Source: Nitrospiraceae bacterium (lineage in GTDB: Bacteria > Nitrospirota > Nitrospiria > Nitrospirales > Nitrospiraceae). Taken from it: 46,638 nucleotides of DNA. The DNA is taken from positions 62,001-108,638 of the forward strand of contig JBBIQV010000004.1 in assembly GCA_037442105.1 (NCBI GenBank), written 5' to 3'. Under the pieces are notes generated by a model that was given only the letters and a program-made list of their open reading frames with translations, had not been told where the DNA came from and did no database searches. Both the position numbers and the translations under genes were made by a program. Shown here piece after piece: positions 23,539 to 46,638 of this stretch; positions within the stretch are counted from its first letter, which is position 1, and each line of letters opens with the position of its first letter.

Positions 23539-23543
23539 CACGC

Positions 23544-23631: not shown

Positions 23632-23637
23632 AGGGGT

Positions 23638-24594: not shown

Positions 24595-24595
24595 A

Positions 24596-25264: not shown

Positions 25265-25268
25265 GGAA

Positions 25269-28294: not shown

Positions 28295-28298
28295 CAAG

Positions 28299-29970: not shown

Positions 29971-29986
29971 AAGACCTGGAGGACCC

Positions 29987-31359: not shown

Positions 31360-31401
31360 TTCATCCGGCGAACAGACCAAACGAGCCCATTTCCGCTCCT
31401 G

Positions 31402-31469
31402 ATGCATCTGCTTCATCGTGAAAATGATGAAAGCGGCTCATTGTTCCGCCGGTGTTTCAGCCTTAGCTT
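31402..31469 (+). promoter_or_regulatory. Candidate activator sites plus sigma70 promoter for the cupredoxin cluster
   Basis: ATGCATCTGCTTCAT (31402-31416) and ATGAAAGCGGCTCAT (31427-31441) abut TTGTTC-N17-TAGCTT (31441-31469). Confidence 0.45.
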
Positions 31470-31572
31470 TGAAATATCCTCAAAGGACTGAGGATACGGT
31501 TGTCGGGAGTGGACGAAGGGATAGAGGTCTGTAGCGAGAGGCTAGTCCTATAAAGAAGAAAGGAGGAACGTT

Positions 31573-32067
31573 ATGAAGATCAGAGGACATTCAACCACAT
31601 TGCTAGCCGTTCCTATTGCCGTAGCGGCATTGACGCTGCCGGGTGTGGGAACGGACACCGTGTATGCGCAAGCCAAGGGGATGGGCGAGCCGTTGTCGAA
31701 GGTGGAGATCACCATCAAGGACCGGAACCATGGGTATGAGACCGTGGGTTTTACTATGCCGTCACACGACACAACGATTGTGGTCCGGAACGAAGACACT
31801 GTCACTCACGGGTTTGCCTCGAACCTGTTCAAGGGTATCCCGGTCCGCATGGAAGGCGGTGTTGAGGTTCGCGGAAAGAACTTCAAGTCGTTCCACGTCG
31901 AGCCGGGAAAGACCATGACGCTGCAGTTCGCGACTATGCCTACGAGGTTCGATCCTGCAACAGGCAGCGCTGAGAGCCTACGGCATGCGCTATGGTGCGA
32001 TATTCATCCTGAAGTGAAGGGTGAATTGTACGTGATCGAAACCAGGGGCGAGATCGGCGGCGGGTGA
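31573..32067 (+). CDS. Secreted cupredoxin-like protein
   Basis: AGGAGG SD; signal peptide; NEDTVTHGF ... WCDIHPEVKGEL. Confidence 0.75.
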   Translation: MKIRGHSTTLLAVPIAVAALTLPGVGTDTVYAQAKGMGEPLSKVEITIKDRNHGYETVGFTMPSHDTTIVVRNEDTVTHGFASNLFKGIPVRMEGGVEVRGKNFKSFHVEPGKTMTLQFATMPTRFDPATGSAESLRHALWCDIHPEVKGELYVIETRGEIGGG

Positions 32068-32131
32068 GGGTGCCTTGTTGCCGGAACGCGGAGAAGCCAG
32101 CTCCATACGAAGGTCTTCAGGGAGCACCTTG

Positions 32132-32563
32132 GTGAATGGGTTTGCCACCGCGGCTCTGGTTAGCGGTTTGACGCTGTTCAGCCTGGCCGGGGCCGCGGAG
32201 TTTCACTTTGTCGCCGAAGAGCGTGCCGAAAAGCAAGCCGCATGGGTATCCCAGGAGGTGGTGATTCACCGCAGCATGGAGATGCAGGACGGTTTGGTCT
32301 TCGTGTTGGAGAATCCGACGGACCGCACCCACGCGTTCGCGGCGCATGGGTTGTTTGAACAGGTAATGGATGCTCAAGGGGAAATCACGACGAAACCGTT
32401 GCTGGTCAACGTGACTCCTGAAGATACGGTGCTTGTCCAGGTGAGCACCGCGCAATTCGAAGGGCTTTCCCTGAGTTCAGGGCAAGGGGAAGAGTTTCCC
32501 TTCTTCTGTCCCCTTCACAAAGGCGATGCCCACCTGGGTGGCACGATTCATGTGGTCCCATAA
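32132..32563 (+). CDS. Secreted cupredoxin-like protein
   Basis: NPTDRTHAF ... FFCPLHKGDAHLGGTIHV; paralog of the next gene; start 32132 (GGGAG SD) or 32075. Confidence 0.7.
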   Translation: MNGFATAALVSGLTLFSLAGAAEFHFVAEERAEKQAAWVSQEVVIHRSMEMQDGLVFVLENPTDRTHAFAAHGLFEQVMDAQGEITTKPLLVNVTPEDTVLVQVSTAQFEGLSLSSGQGEEFPFFCPLHKGDAHLGGTIHVVP

Positions 32564-32569
32564 GGAGGG

Positions 32570-33028
32570 ATGCGGGCCATGAAGAGACTCTCACTTGCAG
32601 CCACTGTGGCGGCGTTTGTCCTTGCTTTTGTGCTGGGAAGTTCGGTCATGCCGCAAGAGAGTTGGGCAGGAGAGTTCCGCTTTGTTGTTCAGGATATGGC
32701 AGACGACTCCGCAGCCTGGTTTCCCATTGAGGTGATCGTTCACCGGGATACAGATGGGAAGAACGGCATGGTGTTCATCCTGGATAATCCAACCCAGCGG
32801 ACCCATGTCTTTGAGGCGCCCGGTTTGTTGGAATGGATGGTTGATGAACAGGAAATGAAACCGTTACGGATCACAGTGGCTCCGGAGGAGTCGGTGCGGG
32901 TGGAGGTGAGTGTCGCGCAGTCGGAGCGGATGCCTGAACCGTGCTGGGAGGAGATGAATTATCGATTCTTCTGCCCCCTGCACCAGGCCGATAGTGTGCT
33001 GGCCGGTGTCATCCGGGTGGTACCGTGA
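32570..33028 (+). CDS. Secreted cupredoxin-like protein
   Basis: AAGGAGG SD; NPTQRTHVF ... FFCPLHQADSVLAGVIRV. Confidence 0.72.
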   Translation: MRAMKRLSLAATVAAFVLAFVLGSSVMPQESWAGEFRFVVQDMADDSAAWFPIEVIVHRDTDGKNGMVFILDNPTQRTHVFEAPGLLEWMVDEQEMKPLRITVAPEESVRVEVSVAQSERMPEPCWEEMNYRFFCPLHQADSVLAGVIRVVP

Positions 33029-33074
33029 ACAGGCGGTGATCAGGCGGAAGGAGAAACGAGAAGGGGAGTAGACA

Positions 33075-33524
33075 ATGAAGGGAGTGGTCATTCAGCGATC
33101 GCTGGTGGCGGCTCTTCTCATGATTGGGGTGCTGGGAACGTTGTTGGTTCTGCCACCGTTCAGCGCGAAAGCCGGCCATGCGAGCTCATCAGAAGAATGG
33201 ATCAATCAACTCACTGGGTTCGTCGTGGTCCAGCGGGGAATTGCCCAGGCGAACGGCGAAGGGGGATCGTTTGACCCCTATGCAGACCAACTTACATCGG
33301 TGCGACGCTCCTTCGAACAAGGTGACCGGAAGGGAACCTATGTGGCGATGAATCGGCTGATGGATATGTTGGAGGCGCGAGCAGGGGGGATCAGCAACCG
33401 GGCGGCTGATGCGATCTGGGACTACTGCTATCAGGTCACGCCGCCCGCTTTGCACGACGTGAAGCGGCACAAGCAGTGGTGGGACAAGACCGTGGATTGG
33501 CAGAAGTTCTTTTGGGAAGAGTAG
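33075..33524 (+). CDS. Secreted helical hypothetical protein (paralog of 34610-34987)
   Basis: Signal peptide; PYADQL..TYVAMNRLMDML..GIS..AD..WDYCYQVTP..HD..RH. Confidence 0.75.
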   Translation: MKGVVIQRSLVAALLMIGVLGTLLVLPPFSAKAGHASSSEEWINQLTGFVVVQRGIAQANGEGGSFDPYADQLTSVRRSFEQGDRKGTYVAMNRLMDMLEARAGGISNRAADAIWDYCYQVTPPALHDVKRHKQWWDKTVDWQKFFWEE

Positions 33525-33589
33525 CGAGCAGCAAATAGCCGGCGGCATATGGCTGGGAGCTGGTAGCTATCCGCTATACGCTGTTCGCC
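33523..33589. repeat. Heptamer tandem-repeat hairpin (AGCGA/TCGCT-type)
   Basis: AGCGAGC AGCAAAT AGC ... GCTGGTA GCTATCC GCTATAC GCTGTTC GC. Confidence 0.7.
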
Positions 33590-33608
33590 AGGGAAAGGAG
33601 GTGGAGCG

Positions 33609-34541
33609 ATGAAATGCTTAGATCACATAGATCTGGCGATGCTGGCTGGAGCGGTGGCGACCATCGGCAGCGCGGCGTTTTTGTTCGCTTATCTGGGAGT
33701 GGAGCGAGAGCCATTGATGCCGCGCGGGGTCGGTGCTCCAACGACTTTCCTGGAGGAAGAGTTGGAGAAGAGCATTAACGAAGCGGTTGTCACCCCCGCG
33801 TATGTGGTTGAGGGCCAAGAGCGAGCGCAGGTCACGCTGGGCCAGGCTATTCTCGGTCTGATCCAGGCCAAAGCGCGAGAAACGATGTTCGTCCCCGAAG
33901 TGGTGAAGGCTGCGGCCGCCGATGCTCGCATGCGACGGGAGTTTCTTGAAGGGGTTTACAAGCTTCCGGCGGACTGGCGAGGACCGGAATTCGCTATGAG
34001 GGAACGGGAGGCAACGGTTCGGGCCCAGGAATCGCTGGGTCGTACCTTGGTGACCGGTACTCAGTTGTTTGCAAAAGAGGTCGAGGTGGCCGAAGCTCGG
34101 TATGGTCGGGCGGTGCTGAGCGCGACTCTCGCGGACAGGCGTGCCGCAATCGAACCGGCTGCGTCGCAGGCGACGATGATCGCCTCTGCCCTGGTCATGA
34201 CTGAATTGGCCAAACGGACGGAACCGGGGCCGAAACTGGTCATTGTGCGCGACCCACGCTGGGGATTCGGATCGATCGGGGACGGTACGATCATCCCGCT
34301 GGCGATTCTTGGCGCCGGGGTGGTGTGGCTGTTGGTCGCAGGGATCGGGATGATGCGAGAGCATGGCGCATCGATCCGGACCGCAGCGACCCATTGCGAT
34401 GTGCACGACAAAGACGTGATGATCGAGACGCTGGTCAGCGATGACAGTCCCTATGAGGTGATCCACTGTTCGGCCTTCAACGGCGGACCGGTCACCTGCG
34501 ACAAGCACTGTCTGACCTGGCCATTGGCACATGCAGCCTGA
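33609..34541 (+). CDS. Hypothetical two-TM membrane protein with C-terminal Cys/His-rich domain
   Basis: AAGGAGGT SD; TMs near both ends; C-terminal HCDVH..HCSAF..TCDKHC. Confidence 0.75.
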   Translation: MKCLDHIDLAMLAGAVATIGSAAFLFAYLGVEREPLMPRGVGAPTTFLEEELEKSINEAVVTPAYVVEGQERAQVTLGQAILGLIQAKARETMFVPEVVKAAAADARMRREFLEGVYKLPADWRGPEFAMREREATVRAQESLGRTLVTGTQLFAKEVEVAEARYGRAVLSATLADRRAAIEPAASQATMIASALVMTELAKRTEPGPKLVIVRDPRWGFGSIGDGTIIPLAILGAGVVWLLVAGIGMMREHGASIRTAATHCDVHDKDVMIETLVSDDSPYEVIHCSAFNGGPVTCDKHCLTWPLAHAA

Positions 34542-34609
34542 GGCGTTCTGCGCCGAGAAGCACTGTAATGACTTGACGTTTCCTGGTCTACGGGAATAAA
34601 GGGGGAGCC

Positions 34610-34987
34610 ATGCTTGCACGGCCACACATAAGGATCGCCATGATCCTCCTACTGCTCGGCGTGTTGGTGGCGACAACGGGTGCCGGGGGTACGGACAGCG
34701 CATGGGTTGACTCAATGGTGGGCGCGGTCCTGGCGGCGAAAGATCGAGAGCGCGATATCGAGGGGACCAAGTATGCTCCATACCTGGGTCAGTTGGAGAT
34801 CGTGAGGGGTACGGTTCGCCGAAATGACGACTTCGCCACGTACGCAGCCATGAATCGGTTCATGGATATGCTGATACAACATGGGCACGGAATCTCCCCC
34901 GATTTGGCTGACTGGCTCCTTGACTATTGCATCGCGGTGACTCCACCGAAGTTTCACGATCTGTCCCGCCATATGCGCCGGGTGTGA
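34610..34987 (+). CDS. Secreted helical hypothetical protein (paralog of 33075-33524)
   Basis: Signal peptide; PYLGQL..TYAAMNRFMDML..GIS..ADWLLDYCIAVTP..HDLSRH. Confidence 0.75.
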   Translation: MLARPHIRIAMILLLLGVLVATTGAGGTDSAWVDSMVGAVLAAKDRERDIEGTKYAPYLGQLEIVRGTVRRNDDFATYAAMNRFMDMLIQHGHGISPDLADWLLDYCIAVTPPKFHDLSRHMRRV

Positions 34988-35020
34988 TGGGAAGAGCGGG
35001 CTCGTAAGTTTGCTTCTACA

Positions 35021-35075
35021 TCCGTGGCATTTGAGGACAGTCAGCCCAAAGCTGATTGTCCCTTTTTGCCACGGA
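35021..35075. repeat. Long imperfect inverted repeat (terminator or REP-like hairpin)
   Basis: TCCGTGGCA-tttga-GGACAGTCAGC-ccaaa-GCTGATTGTCC-ctttt-TGCCACGGA, 34 nt after the last gene of the cupredoxin cluster. Confidence 0.7.
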
Positions 35076-35166
35076 ATAACCTGTCACTCTTCCTAAGTTC
35101 CCTTCGCTCTAGCTTAAAAGTGGCGCTGAATCCATCACGTCCCCAAGTTTTTGTCATCGTGCGAGA

Positions 35167-35182
35167 TGGCACTTCCCTTGCG
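35167..35182 (+). promoter_or_regulatory. Sigma54 promoter
   Basis: TGGCAC-TTCCC-TTGCG, consensus match. Confidence 0.75.
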
Positions 35183-35255
35183 TGCTGCTAAGAAATAGTG
35201 GACGACTCGTCTGAGTGCAGGAGATACCAAGCAGGAGGCTAGGAAAGGAGCCGTT

Positions 35256-35693
35256 ATGAGAGCCACAGAGTATTTTGCCAGCGCCCGTGATCCAAAGACC
35301 TTGACCATCCGGCAAATGATGGAAGATGCGGTCGTGACCGTGAGTCCTCAGTCAACCGGGATGGCGGTGGCGGAGCTTCTGAGCGAGCGTAATTTCGGCA
35401 GCCTCCCGGTCACAGAAGACGACGGAACCCTTGTGGGGTTAGTGAGTGAATTCGATCTTCTGAAGGTTGTGGAGGAGGGGAAGGATCTCCGACAGGTGAT
35501 CGTCGCAGACATCATGACGCGGGATGTCGTAACCGCCACGGAAGATATGCCGGTCAAGGACCTTATCCATCTGCTTCAGGAACGACACCTGATCCGCGTG
35601 CCGGTCGTCAAAGGAAAGACGCTGGTCGGCGTCGTGGCCCGTCGGGATATTGTCTTCGGATACGTGAAGGCGATGGCGAATTATTGGCCGTAG
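35256..35693 (+). CDS. Stand-alone CBS-pair protein
   Basis: AAAGGAG SD; two CBS repeats (LPVTEDDGTLVGLVSEFDLL; VPVVKGKTLVGVVARRDI). Confidence 0.9.
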   Translation: MRATEYFASARDPKTLTIRQMMEDAVVTVSPQSTGMAVAELLSERNFGSLPVTEDDGTLVGLVSEFDLLKVVEEGKDLRQVIVADIMTRDVVTATEDMPVKDLIHLLQERHLIRVPVVKGKTLVGVVARRDIVFGYVKAMANYWP

Positions 35694-35721
35694 CGAGAAG
35701 TAGCGAAAAACGGAGGTTGCC

Positions 35722-36207
35722 ATGCCGATCCTTAAGAGGCTGCAAGATTATCTCGATCAGCATAACGTGCCGTACCAGGTAGTGGGCCATCAGGAAGCCT
35801 ACACCACGCCTGAGATCGCGCATACGATGCACGTGTCCGGAAAAATGTTGGCGAAAGTGGTGATCGTCAAAGCAGGCGACCGGTTCGTGATGGCGGTGCT
35901 CCCGTCGAATTGGAGAATCGACTTTGATCGGCTCACAGAAGTGTTGGGTGCAGGCCACGTACGGTTGGCCACGGAGGACGAATTCAAAGGTCTTTTCCCC
36001 GATTGTCAAATCGGGACTATGCCGCCGTTCGGGAACCTGTACGGGTTAGAGGTCTACGTCGATCAGTCGCTGACGGAAGACGAGGAAATCATTTTCCAGG
36101 CGGGCACCCACTTTGGGGCTGTGAAGCTCAGGTACAAGGACTTCGCGGACTTGGTTCATCCGATGGTCGCAGAGTTCCATCAAGCGCCGGCGGGGTTGGC
36201 GAGTTAA
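35722..36207 (+). CDS. YbaK/EbsC (aminoacyl-tRNA deacylase) family protein
   Basis: GGAGG SD; LAKVVIVK, LATEDE..LFPDCQIGTMPPFGNLYG, VYVDQSL. Confidence 0.88.
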   Translation: MPILKRLQDYLDQHNVPYQVVGHQEAYTTPEIAHTMHVSGKMLAKVVIVKAGDRFVMAVLPSNWRIDFDRLTEVLGAGHVRLATEDEFKGLFPDCQIGTMPPFGNLYGLEVYVDQSLTEDEEIIFQAGTHFGAVKLRYKDFADLVHPMVAEFHQAPAGLAS

Positions 36208-36273
36208 CTTGGTCCATGCCGATGAATCATATGAGCTTCTGCGATCGTGTGGCTGAGGCTAAGGGAGGCCATT

Positions 36274-36474
36274 ATGGTGCAGACAGAAGATACAACGAAA
36301 GACATCCCGCCCTATGAAAGGCCAAGCCATTGTTTACTCTGCGGGCAGGTGGGACCGGTTTTGTTGTATGGGCACTGGATCTGTGACCACTGCAAGAATG
36401 TGGTGCAAGCGGAAGCCCTGGCAAAGAAACGCAAGATCGAAAAGGAGGGTGGCGGACCAGCGCTCACTCGCTAA
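36274..36474 (+). CDS. Small Zn-ribbon-like protein
   Basis: GGGAGG SD; CLLC-x13-CDHC. Confidence 0.65.
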   Translation: MVQTEDTTKDIPPYERPSHCLLCGQVGPVLLYGHWICDHCKNVVQAEALAKKRKIEKEGGGPALTR

Positions 36475-36740
36475 GCGGGGGAATTCTGCTCGGCACCGCT
36501 CCGATACCTGACTGCCAGGATAGAGGATAAGGGACAAGCATACCGCTCGCCGTCCTGCGGATCATTCCAGGTCGCACCGGTCTCGGAAATTCCGGCGGCT
36601 CCCCCTCCACCGAGCACCAGGCGATTGCCCTCTCGGAATTCATACGATCCAATATCAAACGTTCCCTCTTTTACCGCATACCATTTCCCATCGCCGAGCA
36701 GTACTGCGCCGATCTTGCCGGTGTCGATCGATATCCCCAT
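36471..36740 (-). CDS. Small hypothetical protein (only credible minus-strand gene in the window)
   Basis: AAGGAGG SD upstream of ATG 36740; MGISIDTGKIGAVLLGDGKWY...YACPLSSILAVRY; own sigma54 motif upstream. Confidence 0.7.
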   Translation of the reverse strand: MGISIDTGKIGAVLLGDGKWYAVKEGTFDIGSYEFREGNRLVLGGGGAAGISETGATWNDPQDGERYACPLSSILAVRYRSGAEQNSPA

Positions 36741-36795
36741 GTTTGCCTGCGCCCCTCCTTTTGTCCGGACGACGCTGCTGTCGAATCTCATTCGC

Positions 36796-36811
36796 TGCAA
36801 CCGGCGTACCG
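36796..36811 (-). promoter_or_regulatory. Sigma54 promoter (minus strand)
   Basis: Reverse complement CGGTACGCCGGTTGCA, GG-N10-GC. Confidence 0.65.
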
Positions 36812-36989
36812 CACAAGGGTCTTTGCTCGCTGTGCCAACAGCCATTGCCGGATCGCGGCGTAGCAGTCTGCGCCATTGCTGCTCTAGCGGCCGTCCCAAA
36901 CTTCCACAGTCGCGGGCGAATTGTCCGAAGATCGGTGAGAAAACCTACGCCCCGATAGGGATTTTATATTTCTAGCGCGCCATGCTCGT

Positions 36990-37004
36990 TGGCATGTTCG
37001 TTGC
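36990..37004 (+). promoter_or_regulatory. Sigma54 promoter of the cytochrome c-cyc2-like-bc-V/A-ATPase genes
   Basis: TGGCAT-GTTCG-TTGC, 26 bp before ATG 37031; AT-rich stretch upstream (36961-36972). Confidence 0.75.
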
Positions 37005-37030
37005 CCTTCCTTCTTTCGAGAGCTGCAGGC

Positions 37031-37348
37031 ATGAAGGCAAAAGCATTACTCGTTATGGCCATGGTGAGTGCCGCAAGCGTCAGCTCGGCGCAAGTCGAGC
37101 CGGCGCTGATTGCGAAGGGCGAGAAGGTCTATATGGACAAGCGCTGCGGTGCGTGCCACGCCATCAAGGGGAAAGGCGGGAAGGCCGGCCCGGATCTGGG
37201 TGACATCGGCGCCAAGCCGGAGGTGGAACGGCTGAAGAACTTCATGAAGGACCCCAAGGCCGTCAATCCGCAATCGAAGATGCTGCCGTTCAAGGGAACG
37301 GAGGAGGAACTGGAGGCGCTCGTCAGGTATCTCAGTTCGCTGAAATGA
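37031..37348 (+). CDS. Periplasmic monoheme class I cytochrome c
   Basis: Signal peptide; GEKVY..CGACH..GPDL..P..VNPQSKM (distal Met). Confidence 0.92.
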   Translation: MKAKALLVMAMVSAASVSSAQVEPALIAKGEKVYMDKRCGACHAIKGKGGKAGPDLGDIGAKPEVERLKNFMKDPKAVNPQSKMLPFKGTEEELEALVRYLSSLK

Positions 37349-37381
37349 AACGGCGGGGGAGGCCGGAGAAAGGACCGAGCC

Positions 37382-38626
37382 ATGACACGACGAGGGGGCA
37401 CGCCCAGACTCAGTCACATCGCCATTGTGATGGCTCTCATCATGATCGGGATCGCCGGAACATTGGTCGGCACCGTCCGGGAATCAAAGGCTATTCCTGC
37501 CTGGGCCCGCAAATACAACGCCGATTGCTCCATGTGCCATTACCCCACGGTCCCGCGTCTGAATTCCTTCGGCCAGCAGTTCCGGCGGGCCGGCTATCGG
37601 ACGCCCGACGAGTTCGGCAAGGACCAGGATGTGACCAAGGTGGGCGAGTTCTTCTCCACGAGACTGCGCGCCCGGTTCGGCTACGAAAACAAAGAAGGCC
37701 AGATCGACCGCAGCGAATTCACCTTGAACGATGTGACATTCTTTTATGCCGGGGCGATCACCAAAAACTTCTCGGCCTTAGTCGAACCGGAGTTCAAAAG
37801 CGATGGCAAATTGGAACTGGTCGGCCAGCTTCAAGGAGTCTTCGGAAACTCAGACCGGTACGTGAGCATCCGCGCGGGGCAGATGCATCCCCTCCAACGA
37901 GTGGGGCTCGGCGGATTTGACCGGCCCACAGGCATCAGCACCAATCCGCTGCATTCGACCACCCTGACAACCACCGCGTTCAAAAGCGGGGGCACAAGCT
38001 TTAGTCTCGCGACAGATCAGAAGGGAATCGAAGTCGCCTATGTCCAGGGTCGCAGCCGGCTGTTGGCGCAGGTCCTCAACGGGCTGGATTTAGATGCCAA
38101 AGGCACCGCCACAAGGGGAGATATTGATCCAATGAAAGATTACCTGGTGGCCTACGAGCACATCCTGGATGATATTGCCTCCGGGTTCACTCTTTTCTAT
38201 TACAACGGGAGCCTGCGCGGCACCATCCCAAATGTGCCGGGCCGCCCCCGCTTCGACTACTCGCGGTTCGGCATCAACGTCAATAAGATTTTCCCGGTCG
38301 GGTTCGGATTCTTTGAACTGCAAGGGGGGTTCATCCGAAGCTATGACAACGTCCCGGTCCAGCGCGGGACCGATGTCGAAGGCCACGCCTTTTACATCGA
38401 ATCGCAGCAAGTGCTCAAGGACACTTGGCTCACGTTCTTTGAACGGTATGCCTTCATCGAGCAGGATGCCGCGCGCAAGAACACGAGGCGGCAGGACTAC
38501 ACGCTCGGCGCGGTGATGCCGGTGCAGACCTGGCTTCGGGCGGCGGCGGAGTACACGTACACGGATAACCGGGCGACCGGCTCCTCCGATCATGTGGCGC
38601 TCGCTGAGTTGATGGTGAACTGGTAG
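37382..38626 (+). CDS. Cyc2-like outer-membrane cytochrome c-porin fusion
   Basis: Signal peptide then AIPAWARKYNADCSMCHYPTVPRLNSFGQQFRRAGY (Cyc2-type N-terminal heme motif); amphipathic beta-strand C-terminal region ending in W. Confidence 0.75.
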   Translation: MTRRGGTPRLSHIAIVMALIMIGIAGTLVGTVRESKAIPAWARKYNADCSMCHYPTVPRLNSFGQQFRRAGYRTPDEFGKDQDVTKVGEFFSTRLRARFGYENKEGQIDRSEFTLNDVTFFYAGAITKNFSALVEPEFKSDGKLELVGQLQGVFGNSDRYVSIRAGQMHPLQRVGLGGFDRPTGISTNPLHSTTLTTTAFKSGGTSFSLATDQKGIEVAYVQGRSRLLAQVLNGLDLDAKGTATRGDIDPMKDYLVAYEHILDDIASGFTLFYYNGSLRGTIPNVPGRPRFDYSRFGINVNKIFPVGFGFFELQGGFIRSYDNVPVQRGTDVEGHAFYIESQQVLKDTWLTFFERYAFIEQDAARKNTRRQDYTLGAVMPVQTWLRAAAEYTYTDNRATGSSDHVALAELMVNW

Positions 38627-38638
38627 CCGGGAGAAAAA

Positions 38639-38712
38639 CCGCTGGCCGTTATCAGTCATCCGTTAACCGTTATCCGTAATCGGAAAAACGGCCAACGGAA
38701 AACGGATCATCG
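38639..38712. repeat. Heptamer tandem-repeat hairpin (CCGTTAT/AACGG family)
   Basis: CCGTTAT CAGTCAT CCGTTAA CCGTTAT CCGTAAT ... AACGGCC AACGGAA AACGGAT. Confidence 0.75.
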
Positions 38713-38725
38713 CGCGGAGACCTCG

Positions 38726-39223
38726 ATGCTGGAGAGACGGAGCTTCGTGACGGGCCTGCTCGCTGTCCTCGGTATGGTCATGGCGGCTGTGGTCGGTATT
38801 CCGCTGGTCGGCTACACGGTCCTGCCTGCACTCAAAAAGCGACCGGAGGTCTGGATCGACGGAGGAGCGGAAGCGGAGCTCATCCCCGGCCAGCCGCGTG
38901 AACTCAAGATCTACCAGACCATCACTGAGGGCTGGCACAAGACCACGTTGGCCAAGTCCATCTGGGCCGTCAAACAAGCGACGGGCGAGCTGGCGGTGTA
39001 TTCGGGACTTTGTACACACCTCGGTTGCGGCTTTCGGTGGGATCAACAGAAGCAGGAGTTTCGATGCCCCTGCCATACGGCGGCGTTTGCACTGGACGGT
39101 CGCGTGCTCGGAGGCCCGCCGCCCAGGCCGCTCGACACGCTTCCAGCCAAGGTGGAGGGCGGACGGCTCCTGGTGATTTACAAGGAGTTCAAGGCGGGCG
39201 CGACCGCGAAAATCGAAATATAG
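38726..39223 (+). CDS. qcrA: Rieske [2Fe-2S] subunit of a cytochrome bc complex
   Basis: Tat-like ERRSF plus TM; CTHLGC and CPCH; GPPPRPL. Confidence 0.93.
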   Translation: MLERRSFVTGLLAVLGMVMAAVVGIPLVGYTVLPALKKRPEVWIDGGAEAELIPGQPRELKIYQTITEGWHKTTLAKSIWAVKQATGELAVYSGLCTHLGCGFRWDQQKQEFRCPCHTAAFALDGRVLGGPPPRPLDTLPAKVEGGRLLVIYKEFKAGATAKIEI

Positions 39224-39311
39224 GGCTAGTGGTACGGGGCGAGAGGCAGGAGGCAAGAAAAATGTTCGTCTTTGTCCCAACCTCTAGCCCCTTGCCTCGG
39301 GCCTCGCGCCT
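39223..39311. repeat. Heptamer tandem-repeat hairpin (GAGGC/GCCTC family)
   Basis: GGGGCGA GAGGCAG GAGGCAA ... CCTCTAG CCCCTTG CCTCGGG CCTCGCG CC; related to 45206-45297. Confidence 0.72.
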
Positions 39312-39320
39312 GGAGCAACA

Positions 39321-40637
39321 ATGTTGCGAACCATCTATAACTGGCTCGATGAGCGCCTGAAGTTGACGCCGATCCGCGTTGCATTGCTCGAAGAGCCCAT
39401 CCCCGGCGGTGCAAGCTGGATCTATGTCTTCGGAAGCGTGACGCTCTTTGCGTTCCTCCTCCAGATGGGAACCGGTATGTTCCTGATGCTGTCCTACGCG
39501 CCGACCGCCGACCATGCCTACGAGAGTGTCCGCTACATCCAGGAAGAAGTTCCGTTCGGGACGTTTCTCAGGAGCCTCCATCATTGGGGGGCTTCGTTGA
39601 TGATGGTAGCGGTCGGCCTGCATATGCTCCAAGTCTTTCTGTACGGCGCTTATAAGCGCCCGCGGGAACTGATGTGGCTGGTCGGCGTGGTGCTGTTTCT
39701 CCTTACGCTCGCGTTCGGGTTCAGCGGCTATCTGCTGCCCTGGGACCAGCGGGCCTACTGGGCCACTCAAGTAGGGGTGAACATTGTGGGGACGATTCCG
39801 CTGATCGGCGAGACGCTTGTGAGGATTATTCGGGGAGGTCCGACCCTTGGCACAATGACCCTGAGCCGGTTCTTTGCGCTGCACACCGTGTTTCTCCCCT
39901 GGCTCTTGATGGGTCTGGTGGTCCTGCATCTGATCATTCTCCGCCGGCTCGGACCGGCCGGTCCGTGGGACCCTGCGCGGGCAACCGCTTTCAGTGAACC
40001 GTTTTGGCCGAAGCAAGTGGGGATGGATGCTGTCGCGATGTTTGCGGCCTTTCTCATCCTTGTCAGCGTGGCCCTGTGGCTGCCGCCATCGTTGGCCGAT
40101 CGCGCGAATCCCGCCGATACGACCTTTATGCCGGTCCCTGAATGGTACTTTCTCTTCTATTACGAGATGCTCAAGTACTTCCGCGGGCGGTGGGAGATCG
40201 TCGGCACCGTGATCATCCCGGTGTTGTTCTACGCGCTGTTATTCTTGCTTCCATTCCTTGATCGGCGTCCGGAGCGCCGGCCGTTTTCCCGCCCGATGGC
40301 CATCGGAGCCGGTGGTCTACTGTTGGCCGTCGTCTTCGCTTTTCTGACGATGTCGCTGAAGGCGGTGGCTTCGATCTCTCTGACAGACCCCTCGGTTGCA
40401 CGGGGCAAGCAGCTCTATCAGGCGTTGGGTTGTGCTGCCTGTCACCGCATTCATGGAGAGGGGGAAGCGGTGGGACCCGATCTTTCTAACGTAGGAAGCC
40501 AACGAAATGCCGGCTGGCTGATGCATCGCTTAAGGGAGCCCGAATCCGTACAGCCGGGCTCCATCATGCCCGCGTATGCGAGCCTGAGCGACGAGGAACT
40601 GAGAGACCTGGCGAATTATATGGTGAGTCTGAAGTGA
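39321..40637 (+). CDS. qcrB: Cytochrome b of the bc complex fused to a C-terminal cytochrome c
   Basis: WLDERL, RSLHHWGAS, HMLQVF, GYLLPWDQ, LHTVFLP..LHL, PEWYFLF, C-terminal CAACH..GPDL..PGSIMP. Confidence 0.93.
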   Translation: MLRTIYNWLDERLKLTPIRVALLEEPIPGGASWIYVFGSVTLFAFLLQMGTGMFLMLSYAPTADHAYESVRYIQEEVPFGTFLRSLHHWGASLMMVAVGLHMLQVFLYGAYKRPRELMWLVGVVLFLLTLAFGFSGYLLPWDQRAYWATQVGVNIVGTIPLIGETLVRIIRGGPTLGTMTLSRFFALHTVFLPWLLMGLVVLHLIILRRLGPAGPWDPARATAFSEPFWPKQVGMDAVAMFAAFLILVSVALWLPPSLADRANPADTTFMPVPEWYFLFYYEMLKYFRGRWEIVGTVIIPVLFYALLFLLPFLDRRPERRPFSRPMAIGAGGLLLAVVFAFLTMSLKAVASISLTDPSVARGKQLYQALGCAACHRIHGEGEAVGPDLSNVGSQRNAGWLMHRLREPESVQPGSIMPAYASLSDEELRDLANYMVSLK

Positions 40638-40699
40638 AATTCCGGACAAGCGGCGTGTGGGACGAGGCGAGAGGGTGAGGCCGTTTTCAACATTCTGAT

Positions 40700-41110
40700 A
40701 TGCCTGACGAACGAGACCAACAGTCGCCGGAGATCCTCCTGCAGATTCAGACTGCTGAGCACAAAGTGGAGGCCATGCTTCGCGCGGCTGAACGTGACGC
40801 CGCTGCGCTGATCGAGAGAGCCCGCGCTCAAACCGATGCCCTGGTGAACGAGAAACGCCGCGCGCTGGAGGAGAAGAAAAAGGATGCGCTCGCCCAAGGT
40901 TTCATGGAAGCGGAGCGCGAGGCCGGCCAAGTCATCGAGCAGGCCCGAGCCATGGCCGGTGTTCTGAAGGCACGGTGCGCGACCAAAATGGATGAGGCTG
41001 TCGAATTGGTTCTCAAGCGGATTCTGCCGGTTGCCGAGGAGGGATCAGCTGTCAGCAATCAGCCGTCAGCGATCAGTCCTGTCAGCAAAGAAGACAAACC
41101 TGATGGCTGA
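40700..41110 (+). CDS. V/A-type ATPase peripheral-stalk subunit G (H)
   Basis: Charged coiled coil (IQTAEHKVEAMLRAAERDA...DEAVELVLKRILP) directly before subunit I. Confidence 0.78.
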   Translation: MPDERDQQSPEILLQIQTAEHKVEAMLRAAERDAAALIERARAQTDALVNEKRRALEEKKKDALAQGFMEAEREAGQVIEQARAMAGVLKARCATKMDEAVELVLKRILPVAEEGSAVSNQPSAISPVSKEDKPDG

Positions 41111-41129
41111 ATGCTAATAGCTGACAGCG
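41045..41129. repeat. Heptamer tandem-repeat hairpin overlapping the 3' end of the subunit G gene
   Basis: TCAGCTG TCAGCAA TCAGCCG TCAGCGA TCAG ... CTGATGG CTGAATG CTAATAG CTGACAG. Confidence 0.8.
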
Positions 41130-41134
41130 AGACC

Positions 41135-43036
41135 ATGATTGAGCCAATGGCCAAAGTGCGATTGATCTCTCCTCGCCACCTGGTGGACGGGGTGACGGCG
41201 ACCCTTCAAGAGATCGGCGTCTTGCATATCGAGTCTGCCCCCGGTGAAGCCATCCGGATTCCGTTGCCTCCTCATGTGATGGATGAAGCGGCCCGGCAAC
41301 GGCGGGCTGCACTGGATCGACTGCGCGAAGAATTGCGCCGGCTTCTTGTCCTGCTGCCGGAGATCTCCTCCGGTGAATGGAGAGGGGCTGCACCATCGCG
41401 ACCGGAGCTCACAGGGAAACACCTTGTGCTCCTGACCCAGATGGTGAGAGAGGTCGGCGGCCGCGTCGATGAGGCATCCGCGAGATTGAAAGCGTGCGAA
41501 GAGGAACTGGCGCTTTTGTCTAAATATGAGAAAGCCCTCGTGGCGCTCACCCCATTTCTCAGTTTGATTCAGGAGAGCGAAGAGTTGGACCACCTCGGTG
41601 TCACGCTTGAAGAGAAAGAAAAGGACCGCCATCTCCTGGGGGTTCTCCATGAAATGATGGCTACGATAACCCACAACCGCTATGAGTTGTTCCATGCCCG
41701 TTTGGATGAGCGGTCGCTGGTCGTCCTCATGATCTTTCCGAAAGCCGACAGCTCCAAGATTCGCAGTCTGCTGTGGGAGGAGGGCATCACCGAACTCCAG
41801 CTTCCGGTGTCCGTCGCAGACAAGCCCTTAGGTCAAGCTCTTCGCATTATCCTCCAAAAGAAAACCGAGCTTCCCATCCAGGTCTCGCGGCATCGGCAGG
41901 ACCTGAAAGATTTGGCTCTCCGGTGGCGTCAGGTTCTGGCGCAATCCTATGAGGCTGCCCTCTGTTGTCTGGAACAGATTGATGCGACCGCGTATTTCTA
42001 TCAGACGAAGATGGCCAGCTTTATTTACGGCTGGGCGCCCCATCGTTCCCTTGCCGAGATGAGCGGCAGAATCGGCACAGAGTTTGGAGGGAAAGTGGTG
42101 ATCGATGTGTGCCCGATCAATCCCAAGGAATGGCGGATGATCCCGGTCATTCTGAGGAACCCCGATTTTCTACGCCCGTTTGAAACGCTGACACGGCTGA
42201 TCGCGCTGCCTGTGTACGGCAGCATCGATCCCACACCGTATCTCGCGGTCTTCTTCCCCCTTTTCTACGGCATGATCTTGGGCGATGTCGGGTATGGCCT
42301 GCTGTTGCTCGCCGGCGCAGCGATCGTCAGACAGCGTTACGTTGAAAATCCCATCATGCGGGACCTCGCCGGCATTTTTCTCGTCGCGTCGGCCACGGCG
42401 GTCCTATTCGGTATTCTCTTCGGCGAGTTCTTCGGCGAACTCGGCGGATATGTCGGGCTCAGACCGATCCTCAACCGTATGGAAGCCTTCATTCCTTTTC
42501 TGGCCATTTCGATCGCGATCGGCATGCTCCATGTCGCCCTTGGGATTGTGCTGGGGGCGTGGTCTGCCTGGCGGCGTGGAGAATGGCGGGAATGTTCGGC
42601 CAAACTCGGCGGGCTGCTGCTCGTCGTGACGTTCGTCGCGCTCATTGCGAGCGTCGCGAATCTGTTGCCCGGGACATGGGTGACCGCAGAAACCGCAGCA
42701 CTACTGTTGTCGCTGGTCATCATCTTCGTCTTCGGAGGAGGACGGGGAGCGATGGAATTGCACAATCTGATCAATGTGCTTTCCTACCTCCGGCTCATGG
42801 GCATCGGCGTCGCTTCTGCGGCATTGGCCTTTGCCGCCAATACACTTGGCGGGATGGTGGGGAACCTGTTCTTGGCCGTCGCCGTTGCGGGGACTTTACA
42901 TGCGATCAATCTCGTCTTTGGAATTCTGTCGCCGACGATCCAGTCGCTGCGTCTTCACTATGTGGAGTTCTTCGAGAACTTTTTTGCGCCGGGAGGCAGG
43001 CCTTATAGACCGTTCAGGAGGGAAGCGAGTAGCTAA
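41135..43036 (+). CDS. atpI: V/A-type ATPase subunit I (a)
   Basis: MIEPMAKV start; PVYGSIDPTP, FFPLFYGMILGDVGYG, NVLSYLRLMGIG, LRLHYVEFF. Confidence 0.94.
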   Translation: MIEPMAKVRLISPRHLVDGVTATLQEIGVLHIESAPGEAIRIPLPPHVMDEAARQRRAALDRLREELRRLLVLLPEISSGEWRGAAPSRPELTGKHLVLLTQMVREVGGRVDEASARLKACEEELALLSKYEKALVALTPFLSLIQESEELDHLGVTLEEKEKDRHLLGVLHEMMATITHNRYELFHARLDERSLVVLMIFPKADSSKIRSLLWEEGITELQLPVSVADKPLGQALRIILQKKTELPIQVSRHRQDLKDLALRWRQVLAQSYEAALCCLEQIDATAYFYQTKMASFIYGWAPHRSLAEMSGRIGTEFGGKVVIDVCPINPKEWRMIPVILRNPDFLRPFETLTRLIALPVYGSIDPTPYLAVFFPLFYGMILGDVGYGLLLLAGAAIVRQRYVENPIMRDLAGIFLVASATAVLFGILFGEFFGELGGYVGLRPILNRMEAFIPFLAISIAIGMLHVALGIVLGAWSAWRRGEWRECSAKLGGLLLVVTFVALIASVANLLPGTWVTAETAALLLSLVIIFVFGGGRGAMELHNLINVLSYLRLMGIGVASAALAFAANTLGGMVGNLFLAVAVAGTLHAINLVFGILSPTIQSLRLHYVEFFENFFAPGGRPYRPFRREASS

Positions 43037-43178
43037 CAGCGAATCGCGTCGAAACAAGAGCGAAGAGCTGGTAGCCAATAGGAAATAGCCTGAAACGATG
43101 GAGAGACTGACCGCTGGTGTGGAGCTACTCGCTGCCAGCTACCGGCTGTTAGCTGGTGGAGCTGTTCGCTATTCGTTA
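43024..43178. repeat. Extended heptamer tandem-repeat hairpin between subunits I and K
   Basis: AGCGAGT AGCTAAC AGCGAAT ... GCTACTC GCTGCCA GCTACCG GCTGTTA GCTGG..GCTGTTC GCTATTC. Confidence 0.75.
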
Positions 43179-43195
43179 TCACGGGAGGAGAAAAG

Positions 43196-43417
43196 ATGAC
43201 TGAGATCGGACTCATTGCCATCGGTGCGGGCTTGGCGATCGGACTGGCGGCATTAGCGACAGGCTTGGCGCAAGCCAAGATCGGTGCGGCCGCCATTGGC
43301 GCGATTCTGGAAAAGCCGGAATCATTCGGGACGATGTTGATCGTGCTCGTTATTCCGGAAACGCTGGTGATCTTCGGCTTCACCGTCGCGATTTTGATTT
43401 TGTTCACGCTGAAATGA
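43196..43417 (+). CDS. atpK: V/A-type ATPase proteolipid subunit K (c), single hairpin
   Basis: GGGAGGAG SD; GLAIGLAALATGLAQAKIGAAAIGAI..IPETLVIFG (catalytic Glu). Confidence 0.95.
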   Translation: MTEIGLIAIGAGLAIGLAALATGLAQAKIGAAAIGAILEKPESFGTMLIVLVIPETLVIFGFTVAILILFTLK

Positions 43418-43477
43418 AGCGTACAGCCGTCAGCAAACAGCTCACAGCCCGGAGCTGATCGCTGAGAGCTGATCGCT
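43418..43477. repeat. Heptamer tandem-repeat hairpin between subunits K and E
   Basis: AGCGTAC AGCCGTC AGCAAAC AGCTCAC AGC ... GCTGATC GCTGAGA GCTGATC GCT. Confidence 0.8.
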
Positions 43478-43489
43478 TGTGTGGCCGCC

Positions 43490-44080
43490 ATGCCGTACGA
43501 ATCCCTCATCGCTGCGCTTCTGGAAGAAGGCGAGACGAAATGCGAGGCTATCCTTCGCAAGGCCCAGGCTGAGGCGGATGGCTTGCGCGCGGAAGCGAAA
43601 CGGGCTCTCCGCACACTGGACTGCGAGATGGAAGAGCAGATCCAACGCGATCTCGCGGCGCAGCGGACGGCGATCCTGAGCCGGGCTGTGTTGGCCGCGC
43701 GCCAGGTCTTGTTGCAGGCGAGGCACGAGGTGCTAGACGCGGTGATGAGCGACGCCGGGAAGAGAGCCTTGGCCCTTGCGGGAGACGCTCGAATCAAAGT
43801 GCTGCGGGGATTGCTCAATGAATTGCTGGCCATGGTACCTGCACCGCCTGTCCGGGCGTTCATTGATGACCGAGAATGCTCAGTTCTTGCGAGCCTTTTG
43901 AGCCAGAAGGAAATCCCTTTTAAGGAACAGCGGCGTGATGATCTCCTGCTGGGGATCTCGCTCGAAGTTGACGGGCAGGTGCTGACCAATAGTTTTGCGA
44001 CACGGCTTGCCAAGGTGAAGCCTGAGCTGATCCTGGAACTGAACCGGCTGCTCTTTGATCAGAACACAGCGAGTAGCTAA
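43490..44080 (+). CDS. atpE: V/A-type ATPase subunit E
   Basis: N-terminal coiled coil, C-terminal LLGISLEVDGQVLTNSFATRL; position between K and C. Confidence 0.85.
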   Translation: MPYESLIAALLEEGETKCEAILRKAQAEADGLRAEAKRALRTLDCEMEEQIQRDLAAQRTAILSRAVLAARQVLLQARHEVLDAVMSDAGKRALALAGDARIKVLRGLLNELLAMVPAPPVRAFIDDRECSVLASLLSQKEIPFKEQRRDDLLLGISLEVDGQVLTNSFATRLAKVKPELILELNRLLFDQNTASS

Positions 44081-44128
44081 TAGCGAACAGCGCGGAGCTA
44101 TTCGCTACCGTCAATTGGCTGTCGGCTG
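44068..44128. repeat. Heptamer tandem-repeat hairpin between subunits E and C
   Basis: AGCGAGT AGCTAAT AGCGAAC AGC ... GCTATTC GCTACC; first 20 nt are 19/20 identical to 43024-43043. Confidence 0.75.
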
Positions 44129-44134
44129 AGATAA

Positions 44135-45202
44135 ATGGACGGCTACGCCTATTCCAACGCTCGAATCCGTGCCATGCGGGGCCGGCTGCTGAACCGAGCC
44201 TGGTACGAAACACTGCTTGGGCAGGACACGTTTGGAGGGCTCGTGGAAGCTCTGAAGAATTCGCCCTATGGCCCTATGTTGGCGCACCCTCTTGAAGGGG
44301 TTGACGCCTCACGTCTTACTGCGACAGTTGTGCAAATAGACGAAGCGCTCCGGCTGGATCTGACCAGGAATCTCAGCCGGCTTCGACATTTCCACTCCGA
44401 CCGTCCACTCGAATTGGTGGACCTGCTCTGCTTCCGCTGGGATGTGTACAACGTCAAAACCATCCTGCGGGCTAAGCGCGCGGCTGCGCAAGTCCAAGAG
44501 ATCCTGGCCATGACGTTTCCCATCGGCGTGCTCGATGAGGTAGCCCTGGCCGAGCTCGCCAGAGTTCCCACACTCCACGCTGTCGCGAATCTCCTGGATA
44601 CCTGGCGGCTGCCGCTCGCCCGTCCGGTGAGAATGGGGCTCAAACTACTCGGAGAAACCGAGACCTTGCAACCGCTGGAGTTCGAGCTGGACCGTTTCAT
44701 GTATGTCTATGCGTCCAAACAATTGGCCGATGGGAACGACAATGCGCGAGCCGTAAAGAACTATGTCCGATTCCTTGTCGACAAGGCGAATCTGCTGACC
44801 GCGCTCCGCTACCTCGCTGAACGGAGCGCGCTGTCGCCGATCGAGGCCGTACGGCATTTTCTTGACGCTGACGGGCGGTTCACCCCCGCGCATTTCGAAG
44901 CCATCGCCGGGGCTCGTGATCTGCGTGACGGACTGTCCAAGATTGCTGCGACGCCCTATGGTTGGCTTACGCGAACGTTTGCCGGAGGGGAGCGTATATC
45001 CCTCCCGCTCATCGAAAGGAAGTTGGACCACATGGCTCTTGGCACGGCGTTGAATTTCGCCAGACAAGATCCACTCGGCATCGGGATGGCGATCACCTAT
45101 CTCGAACAGAAGACCAACGAGATTCGCAACCTTCGAATGATTCTGCGCGCCAAAGTTGCGGGGATGGACAACGAACTGACTCGGGAATGGCTGATCATTT
45201 GA
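44135..45202 (+). CDS. atpC: V/A-type ATPase subunit C (d)
   Basis: YAYSNARIRAMRGRLL, WDVYNVKTILR, D..NLLTALR, YL..K.NEIRNLRMI. Confidence 0.92.
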   Translation: MDGYAYSNARIRAMRGRLLNRAWYETLLGQDTFGGLVEALKNSPYGPMLAHPLEGVDASRLTATVVQIDEALRLDLTRNLSRLRHFHSDRPLELVDLLCFRWDVYNVKTILRAKRAAAQVQEILAMTFPIGVLDEVALAELARVPTLHAVANLLDTWRLPLARPVRMGLKLLGETETLQPLEFELDRFMYVYASKQLADGNDNARAVKNYVRFLVDKANLLTALRYLAERSALSPIEAVRHFLDADGRFTPAHFEAIAGARDLRDGLSKIAATPYGWLTRTFAGGERISLPLIERKLDHMALGTALNFARQDPLGIGMAITYLEQKTNEIRNLRMILRAKVAGMDNELTREWLII

Positions 45203-45205
45203 TGC

Positions 45206-45297
45206 GGGCAAGGGGTATGGAGCTAGGGGCGCGAGGCAAGAGGACAACGTTGGGTAACATCATCTTTCCTCTAGCCGCTCGCCTCGTGCCTCGCGCC
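45206..45297. repeat. Heptamer tandem-repeat hairpin (GAGGC/GCCTC family) between subunits C and F
   Basis: GGGGCGC GAGGCAA GAGG ... CCTCTAG CCGCTCG CCTCGTG CCTCGCG CC. Confidence 0.72.
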
Positions 45298-45311
45298 GGC
45301 TGTGGTGTTCT

Positions 45312-45641
45312 ATGGCCCGATTAATTGTCATCACCGATCCCGACACGGCATTGGGGTTTTGTCTAGCCGGTGTCCAAGTTCACGAAGTGAGCGACGAGGA
45401 AGCTGGCGCGACCCAACTTCTCACGCTGCTGCGGAGCAAAGAAGCCGGGATCGTGATCTATAACGAAGAGTTCCAGTCGGCGCTCCCGGCGAAAAGCCGA
45501 GTCGCATTGGAGGAAAGCATCACTCCGGTGTTTTTCGCCATCCCGGTGGCACAGGCTCAGCGGGCGGGAGAACCGCGCGAGCAATACCTGGCACGCCTGC
45601 TCCGTCGAGCGATCGGGTATCAGGTGAAAATTAGGAGGTAG
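45312..45641 (+). CDS. atpF: V/A-type ATPase subunit F
   Basis: VITDPDTALGFCLAGV ... RLLRRAIGY. Confidence 0.92.
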   Translation: MARLIVITDPDTALGFCLAGVQVHEVSDEEAGATQLLTLLRSKEAGIVIYNEEFQSALPAKSRVALEESITPVFFAIPVAQAQRAGEPREQYLARLLRRAIGYQVKIRR

Positions 45642-45693
45642 CTGTCAGCAATCAGCAGTCAGCAAAGAAGCTGAGAGCTGATCGCTGAGAGCT
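45640..45693. repeat. Heptamer tandem-repeat hairpin between subunits F and A
   Basis: AGCTGTC AGCAATC AGCAGTC AGC ... GCTGAGA GCTGATC GCTGAGA GCT. Confidence 0.8.
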
Positions 45694-45705
45694 TCCCAGC
45701 TACTT

Positions 45706-46638
45706 ATGAGCGGCACCATCATCAAAATTTCCGGTCCGACGGTCGTTGCACGAGGCATGGAACAGACGCGCATGTTTAACCGTGTGGCTGTCGGGACCCA
45801 GGGCTTGCTGGGAGAAGTGATCCGCCTTCTGGGCGGCGAAGCCACGATTCAGGTCTATGAGGACACCACTGGGTTGGCGCTTGGCGAGGATGTGGTCGAC
45901 GCAGGCGAGCCGCTTCAAGTCGAACTGGGGCCGGGGCTGCTTGGATCAATTTTTGACGGTGTCCAGCGACCGCTGGATATGATCGCCGCTCAGCAGGGGG
46001 TCTGGATCTCCCGTGGGTTGACCGTACCGGCGCTCTCACGGGAACGACGATGGGAGTTTACGCCGACGGTGCGCGTCGGAGCTTCCGTCACCGGCGGAAT
46101 GTGTATCGGCATCGTGAGGGAGACCGCCAAGGTCGAACATCGCATTTTGGTTCCTCCTGGCACCGCGGGAACGATCCAAGACATTCGTGCGGGCACTGTC
46201 ATGATTGAAGAGCCGATCGCCTGGCTCGACGGAGATCGCCCGATCGCGATGCTCCAGCGTTGGCCGGTGAGGACGCCTCGCCCGGTGACCGATCGCCTGC
46301 CGCCGGTCGTCCCGTTCATCACAGGCCAACGGGTCTTCGACATGTTGTTCCCGATCGCCTCCGGTGGGACCGTGATTGTTCCCGGTGGATTCGGAACGGG
46401 CAAGACGGTGGTAGAGCAGACCCTGGCTAAACACGCGCAGGCGGACATCATCATTTACATCGGGTGTGGAGAACGCGGCAATGAAATGACCGAGGTCCTG
46501 ACCGACTTCCCTCGGTTGAAAGATCCAACCTCCGGCTTGCCGCTGATGGAGCGGACGGTGCTCGTGATCAATACGTCGAACATGCCGGTGGCGGCTCGGG
46601 AGACCTCGATCTACACCGGAATTACCATTTCCGAGTAC
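45706..46638 (+). CDS. atpA: V/A-type ATPase catalytic subunit A (3' end outside window)
   Basis: Hand translation (not in the ORF track, no stop in window): [50 protein letters not shown], Walker [29 protein letters not shown]. Confidence 0.96.

Follow-up and report, generated by a model that had tools for sequence, protein, structure and literature searches.

Fused cytochrome-porins of the Cyc2 family are known from A. ferrooxidans (Cyc2), M. ferrooxydans (Cyc2PV-1) and Leptospirillum (Cyt572), and proteins of its cluster 3 from Nitrospira and Candidatus Manganitrophus. A gene of this type lies in a row with genes for a cytochrome c, a Rieske/cytochrome b complex (bc complex, complex III) and a V/A-ATPase at positions 36990-46638 of the DNA analysed here (the window, 46,638 nucleotides of a Nitrospiraceae bacterium). 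The window forms the terminal part of contig C4 in a genome of 2.81 Mb and 86.7% completeness (G000). The closest named homologues of the window's genes are from Nitrospiraceae. Cyc2 in Nitrospira has already been published (10.1101/2024.12.25.630300; 10.1101/2021.11.15.468770) and assigned to cluster 3 (10.1101/2024.12.25.630300), the cluster with the least certain function (10.1101/228056). The family is defined by AXPXFAR[Q/K][T/Y] before CXXCH and by PXL four residues after it (10.1101/228056). The window protein shares with the family a signal region, one CXXCH, AXPX[F/W]AR[K]Y and PXL, a 16-strand OprP-like barrel and an adjoining periplasmic cytochrome c, but it has Trp for Phe, and its own Rieske protein and cytochrome b are encoded alongside instead of an oxidase. 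In Acidithiobacillus, the pet genes are organized as an operon of their own, and in Leptospirillum the genes are unclustered (PMC10654088). Rusticyanin, Cyc1 and aa3 oxidase of the Acidithiobacillus rus/pet system were absent among the open reading frames (ORFs) of 36990-46638 in Pfam and NCBIfam searches.

Several complex III copies per genome are known in Nitrospirales (PMC12342949 Table S6). Like these QcrA/QcrBC paralogues, including those clustered with an octaheme reductase, the window encodes a Rieske protein and a cytochrome b-c fusion, but its copy is in a separate, Cyc2-tied clade and its Rieske protein is without the Ser/Tyr pair. The literature consulted on V/A-ATPases of Nitrospirales is concerned with pH or sodium homeostasis and with linkage to a nuo operon in one comammox genome, and it does not connect the enzyme with Cyc2 or bc genes. 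The closest published architecture is the Geobacter extHIJKLMNOPQS cluster, in which a phosphate-porin-like outer-membrane protein occurs with cytochromes c, a Rieske protein and cytochrome b and for which a reductive role was suggested (PMC5877670). It has separate multiheme cytochromes, no described heme-fused porin and no ATPase (PMC5877670), whereas the window row has monoheme cytochromes only. In NCBIfam, the window cytochrome b, with 224 bits, fell short of the 290 required for ExtP, and ExtS was far below its cut-off. A published Cyc2-cytochrome c-bc-V/A-ATPase operon was not found in the literature searched, with most subscription papers outside reach. The term cyc2 is absent from the main text of PMC12342949, PMC6852473 and PMC13109103, and PMC5566968 gives a general suggestion only that bc1 may serve Cyc2. 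A preliminary description of this DNA had regarded the combination as unreported in a Nitrospira-like organism. For the operon this stands in the literature searched, but its parts, Cyc2 in Nitrospira and the V/A-ATPase in Nitrospirales, were each in print.

The cytochrome-porin gene (37382-38626, forward strand) codes for 414 aa ending with Trp. A single CXXCH (CSMCH) is at residues 49-53, a hydrophobic helix spans residues 9-31 in the AlphaFold model, and a signal cleavage site was recognized by eye. The motifs AIPAWARKY-NAD-CSMCH-YPTV-PRL match the Cyc2 definition except for Trp in place of Phe, an exchange also present in 23 of 60 gathered Cyc2-like rows. The AlphaFold model (105-row alignment, predicted local distance difference test score 83.3) has 16 long strands. 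Its best structural match is OprP (2o4v; Z 25.4, root-mean-square deviation 3.0, 303 residues aligned), reported as structural template for all Cyc2 (10.1101/228056), and Foldseek likewise returned porins. No Pfam or NCBIfam family was recognized at E 0.01, a PDB sequence search gave just two spurious beta-glucosidase matches, and the Atlas matches were hypothetical clusters, one with 20% Porin_O_P. According to its motifs and the predicted 16-strand OprP-like barrel, the protein is a Cyc2-type cytochrome-porin; the identification in the preliminary description held, with a barrel in the structure prediction proposed there.

In the order, Cyc2-like genes were found in 151 of the 401 sampled genomes at E 0.001, mostly through the N-terminal cytochrome region, and close orthologues in 17 genomes at E below 1e-50. 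The Cyc2 tree is a quick tree with long-branch joins at the base and contains no characterised reference. A sister subfamily with 47-56% identity has histidine kinases as neighbours. A second Cyc2-like gene of the source genome is accompanied by genes for a diheme cytochrome and a carboxypeptidase-regulatory-like protein, and this group is flanked on either side by a large sensor-like gene (contig C3, 84223-91826). The setting, which is similar in the sister subfamily, hints at a sensory role. Cyc2-like genes of several lineages are adjoined by a gene for a SHOCT-domain putative lipoprotein (L033:13155-13991), a candidate Cyc2 partner that is not in the window's cluster.

The Rieske Fe-S subunit is encoded at 38726-39223 (PF00355) and cytochrome b with a C-terminal cytochrome c fusion at 39321-40637 (Pfam), both on the forward strand. 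Motif scan and Pfam recognized the Rieske boxes CTHLGC and CPCH, the cytochrome b heme His pairs and PEWY. Both Ser and Tyr following CPCH in high-potential Rieske proteins are missing in the window protein (box II CPCHTAAF) and in all five members of its subclade, while the copy on contig C13 of the same genome keeps both (CPCHGSVY). These residues are worth 130 and 65 mV in yeast, with one anammox Rieske protein as an exception to the rule (PMC12954380). The sequence fits a low-potential chain. There are four Rieske/cytochrome b loci in the genome, the window's and those on C13, C9 and C43; the C43 locus (3186-6261), inspected by eye, joins genes for Rieske, cytochrome b and an octaheme cytochrome and has ammonium-transporter-like and cyanase-like neighbours.

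Because circularity was to be avoided, cytochrome b was the query for linkage counts in the 401 genomes. At E 1e-190 it matched 17 places in 16 genomes. Together with locus L123, represented in the tree by an identical protein, these form a clade of 18 loci with support 99/98, separate from the other bc copies of the source genome, that on C13 included. Two long-branch rows and cytochromes b aligned over under 300 aa were left out of the tree. The window's own subclade comprises five genomes (support 100/99).

A Cyc2-type gene is located at most 2.5 kb away in 16 of the 18 loci, namely in four of the window subclade, in 11 with a second Cyc2 lineage and in L123. For the second lineage, alignment to the window porin is limited to the N-terminal 45-140 aa, and its place in the quick tree is distant. 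Genome G134, where the locus is at a contig end and cytochrome c-cyc2 are on another contig, and G213 (contig C1) are the two without a nearby Cyc2. As a control, no Rieske or cytochrome b gene was found within 1.5 kb of 13 other Cyc2-like loci. The order Rieske-cytochrome b-cyc2 was seen in two Gemmatimonadota loci, too. The Cyc2-cytochrome c-complex III unit is composed of known parts, real and recurrent, and the porin-cytochrome c-bc coupling put forward in the preliminary description is conserved well beyond the source genome. Through this pairing of pore and bc complex, the quinone pool and the cell surface are likely connected by electron transfer. In G213:C1, a sigma54 box is followed by cytochrome c, an eight-heme protein with a CxxCK site, a Spy-like gene, Rieske, cytochrome b and the ATPase. 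The eight-heme protein matches eight-heme nitrite reductases (PDB, E 1.6e-172) and occupies the Cyc2 slot.

More probably than any other single explanation considered, although with a probability of only about 0.4, the row is an accessory energy operon under sigma54 control, in which the conserved part, a spare bc complex with the small cytochrome c and the Cyc2-type porin, carries electrons outward when oxygen is scarce. Quinol supplied by SQR, ETF-QO and complexes I and II would feed the bc complex, which would run forward with proton translocation and hand the electrons to the fused and the soluble cytochrome c. From cytochrome c they would pass through the Cyc2-type heme to a soluble external acceptor, with chelated Fe(III) or Mn(III) or a quinone-like shuttle as candidates, and the proton-type V/A-ATPase, likely co-induced from the same promoter, would draw on the proton motive force or maintain it in this low-oxygen state. 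Electron direction, substrate, oxygen control, co-transcription and protein contacts are what we infer for the operon. Since a terminal reductase takes the Cyc2 slot at one locus, in G213, the bc subclade may be able to run forward, from quinol to the periplasm. This is opposite to the uphill, Acidithiobacillus-style direction that had been supposed for the window. In N. marina, clusters flanked by universal stress protein (USP) genes rise at low O2, and in the supplement rows available the Cyc2-bc module was not seen (PMC8115632).

The same genes may, with a rather low probability, serve the inward direction, in which the Cyc2-type protein would oxidise dissolved Fe(II) or Mn(II), cytochrome c would deliver electrons to an existing terminal oxidase, and the dedicated low-potential bc complex would run in reverse, so that quinone reduction would cost less than with nitrite as electron source. 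Fe(II) oxidation is the activity of every Cyc2 protein tested, and reduction of an external acceptor has been shown for none of them (10.1101/228056; PMC13692758). The path Cyc2-cytochrome c-bc1 uphill is established in Acidithiobacillus and Leptospirillum, with an uphill share of only about 5% of the Fe(II) electrons in A. ferrooxidans (PMC13741234), and metal oxidation by cluster 3 Cyc2 in Nitrospira was already hypothesised (10.1101/2024.12.25.630300). Moreover, a bd-like oxidase cluster was recognized by eye elsewhere in the genome (C9), and the titles of many closely related genomes name groundwater or sand filters. On the other side, the slot is filled by a terminal reductase in G213, no terminal oxidase is in the cluster although the uphill share in A. 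ferrooxidans is so small, cluster 3 is the cluster of least certain function, and the island around the row resembles a catabolic or stress set more than a lithotrophic one; the reductase swap, the missing oxidase and this neighbourhood favour outward transport over Fe(II)/Mn(II) uptake. If electrons nevertheless run inward, the nitrifier relatives would be part-time metal oxidisers. A soluble non-metal substrate, for example a sulfur or selenium oxyanion that would enter by an OprP-like pore with anion selectivity, in analogy to a proposal for Geobacter ext, is distinctly improbable. It would agree with the OprP-like fold and its many conserved Arg and Lys, with the occurrence, in some relatives, of SQR-like, TsdA-like, sulfite-oxidase and DsrE genes adjacent to cyc2 or to the ATPase, and with the ext cluster, which joins a phosphate-porin-like protein, Rieske and cytochrome b and affects selenite and tellurite reduction (PMC5877670). 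However, the fold is unspecific because all Cyc2 model on OprP, conserved acidic residues equal the basic ones in number, and sulfur genes are missing from the window's cluster.

It is also improbable, if somewhat less so than a non-metal substrate, that there is no single path and that one sigma54 stress island holds the genes as independently mobile components, with the porin acting with cytochrome c alone or as a redox sensor. The first gene after the promoter differs among genomes, the redox cassette is deleted in G141, Cyc2-cytochrome c occur without this bc complex in G365, G141, L143 and L145, and histidine kinases surround the sister subfamily and the C3 paralogue. Such independence is opposed by the adjacent Cyc2-type gene kept at 16 of 18 loci with two Cyc2 lineages in several families and by the similar order in Gemmatimonadota. 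Several points weigh against the outward direction itself, in addition to the Fe(II) oxidation by every characterised Cyc2. The reductase swap is at a single locus of the 18. A low-potential Rieske protein would be just as suitable for drawing electrons from Fe(II) in reverse at low cost, and not every Rieske protein obeys the Ser/Tyr rule (PMC12954380). Two cluster 1 Cyc2 proteins have reported potentials of +208 and -130 mV (10.1101/228056; PMC13692758), and solid minerals are out of reach for one heme in a 16-strand pore (10.1101/228056). Against a tight coupling, the converse linkage fails, as bc genes of this type are absent near most of the 17 close Cyc2 orthologues. Rieske remnants are present 3' of cyc2-cytochrome c in G141, L143 and L145, so Cyc2 is often retained without this bc complex and the module decays piecemeal. 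Island genes share a location, which does not show a shared function.

A more specific proposal, itself doubtful, is that Nitrospirales possess a dedicated low-potential complex III whose terminal partner can be exchanged, being a Cyc2-type protein from either of two unrelated lineages or else an octaheme nitrite reductase, and that the Cyc2-type protein would be a reductase for anoxic extracellular respiration with a co-induced V/A ATP synthase. If true, it would be the first reductase in the Cyc2 family, and the direction implied by many 'iron oxidase' annotations of cluster 3 proteins from nitrifiers would be wrong. Nitrospira often carry Cyc2 homologues, which serve as iron-oxidation markers although their function in these bacteria is uncertain. 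A Cyc2 subset with its own complex III, exchangeable for a terminal reductase, offers a concrete pathway and a testable direction, and either outcome alters the reading of groundwater and sand-filter nitrifier genomes, towards metal oxidation or towards anaerobic extracellular respiration.

The row is preceded by a sigma54 (-24/-12) promoter-like box, TGGCATGTTCGTTGC, at 36990-37004 on the forward strand. Two such boxes are in the window (36990 and 35167) against 0.25 expected by chance, and 16 across the genome, which also encodes sigma54 itself. The 36990 box is in register in four of five aligned relatives, and the fifth has an intact box despite an 11-base deletion. Downstream of this conserved promoter is cytochrome c, cyc2, or a scar followed by subunit G, depending on the genome. 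The second box (35167-35181) is 5' of CBS and YbaK genes and is also present in G365. The preliminary description was right about the box at 36990-37004, but since two matches were found it is not the only one in the window. It was also right about the co-directional, closely spaced genes, as all ORFs named there are present, intact and on the forward strand with intergenic gaps of 0-159 bp. Eleven terminator-like sites were predicted (11.2 by chance), none of them inside the row's intergenic gaps. As judged from the sequence, co-transcription from cytochrome c to the ATPase is plausible. The first gene (37031-37348) codes for a periplasmic monoheme cytochrome c with CGACH and likely a Met ligand (PF00034, E 4e-12), 36% identical to the cytochrome c domain fused to cytochrome b (tblastn).

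The V/A-ATPase subunits follow on the same strand: G/H at 40700-41110 (weak, PF16999 with E 5e-4, below cut-off, and NF006256), I at 41111-43036 (Pfam, NCBIfam), K at 43196-43417, E at 43481-44080, C at 44135-45202 and F at 45312-45641 (all four by Pfam), and the first 311 aa of A at 45706-46638 (NCBIfam), cut by the contig end. The order G-I-K-E-C-F-A given in the preliminary description was thus confirmed, for G weakly. Contig C62 of the genome has the C-terminal half of A, together with B and D, at its start, so that the set A, B, C, D, E, F, G, I, K is complete, with A split by an assembly gap. Subunit K is a single hairpin with the ion-binding Glu in PETLVIF and is nearest to the single-hairpin PETLVIF K of PDB 8yy1/6qum, which we take to be the H+-coupled T. 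thermophilus enzyme with gene order G-I-K-E-C-F-A-B-D. As reported for V/A-ATPases of Nitrospirales, it occurs in addition to F-type genes, with F-type-like alpha and beta genes on contig C11. Close subunit I (E below 1e-200) was found in 19 of the 401 genomes, in line with the 4.8% of Nitrospirales genomes published to have a V/A-ATPase beside the F-type enzyme (PMC12342949).

All five genomes of the window's cytochrome b subclade carry close subunit I (hypergeometric P 1.4e-7, a value given no weight because kin and island inheritance are non-independent). In synteny, bc genes are just upstream of the ATPase in only four of the 19 genomes (G000, G089, G339 and G213); 11 have no bc genes in 5-15 kb, three are at contig edges, and one, G141, has a scar. 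The synteny comparison proposed in the preliminary description supported the Cyc2-bc linkage but not that to the ATPase. Cyc2, bc genes and this ATPase are on a single contig in three of 401 genomes. In G141, the promoter and the first 28 cytochrome c codons are fused directly to the cytochrome b stop codon and the pre-G spacer; therefore, its genes were once arranged as in the window, and the redox cassette from cytochrome c to cytochrome b was lost, while promoter and ATPase were kept. In the sister genome G365 (99% complete), promoter-cyc2-cytochrome c are present, and subunit I and this Rieske type were not found. Subunit I was found in none of five Cyc2 carriers tested. Because of the four linked loci of 19, the G141 scar and G365, an obligate coupling of the ATPase was rejected, and the self-contained module with its own ATPase, as first described, does not hold. 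The V/A-ATPase is likely a merely co-regulated neighbour, separable and outside the conduit. A looser association does recur, as four of 13 sister-subclade loci are 8-10 kb from a distantly related V/A-ATPase. Two genomes have QcrBC four genes after V/A subunit A (PMC12342949 Table S6). In G606 (L208:585-12422), a V/A operon is directly followed by a related Rieske and cytochrome b-c, USP and an SQR-like gene, with no Cyc2.

The V/A subunits of G141 (L087:15622-19765) are unequal in identity to those of the window (I 87%, E 57%, C 63%), which suggests, by sequence comparison, a mosaic operon. Horizontal transfer of the island is not claimed, since the 87% of subunit I is inside the 49-90% range of other genes shared with G141.

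The culture Kam-Ns4a carries the porin family with 64% identity (WP_447974726) and a cytochrome b of the bc subclade with 80% (WP_447974723), and the accession numbers, three apart, suggest that the two genes are adjacent. Its V/A genes are at 1041-1046 and its QcrBC copies at 532, 991 and 1061 (PMC12342949 Table S6). The porin family is also in Candidatus N. bockiana. NxrA, NxrB and AMO were not found in the source genome at its 86.7% completeness, with the AMO search matching nowhere, control included, and NxrA was not found in G089, which is 99% complete and carries the full gene string; the missing NxrA of G089 is probably an assembly loss. NXR is often unassembled (PMC12342949). The designation of the source genome as a non-nitrifier was rejected, as NxrA is at contig ends in G365 of the same genus and the genes found next to nxr in G141 occur at the end of a contig in the source genome.

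The upstream part of the island (30661-36899, recognized by Pfam) consists of genes that recur around the V/A-ATPase in relatives: a PAS-LuxR regulator, secreted hypotheticals, CBS, YbaK, a small Cys-rich protein and a divergent hypothetical gene. Citrate synthase is beside the ATPase in 11 of 19 loci, other usual neighbours being CBS, PAS-LuxR, YbaK and acyl-CoA dehydrogenase/ETF, and ETF-QO, phosphoketolase, acetate kinase, SQR-like, USP and Hsp20 genes occur further in the neighbourhoods of relatives. A citrate synthase remnant near 36325 was rejected, since the sequence is a separate small Cys-rich ORF (36271-36474) with two CxxC and no Pfam match, conserved in the ATPase islands of relatives. 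Six proteins with an N-terminal hydrophobic stretch (31573-34987), for which no family match was found in Pfam or NCBIfam, form two paralogous sets that are located around the V/A-ATPase in several relatives. Just 5' of the island, 21511-30490 encodes a hyf-like membrane complex operon with antiporter-like, NADHdh, 30/49-kDa and 20-kDa subunits. An HTH-PBP regulator, an OprP-type porin and an apparent molybdate ABC transporter form a cluster at 3937-10967.

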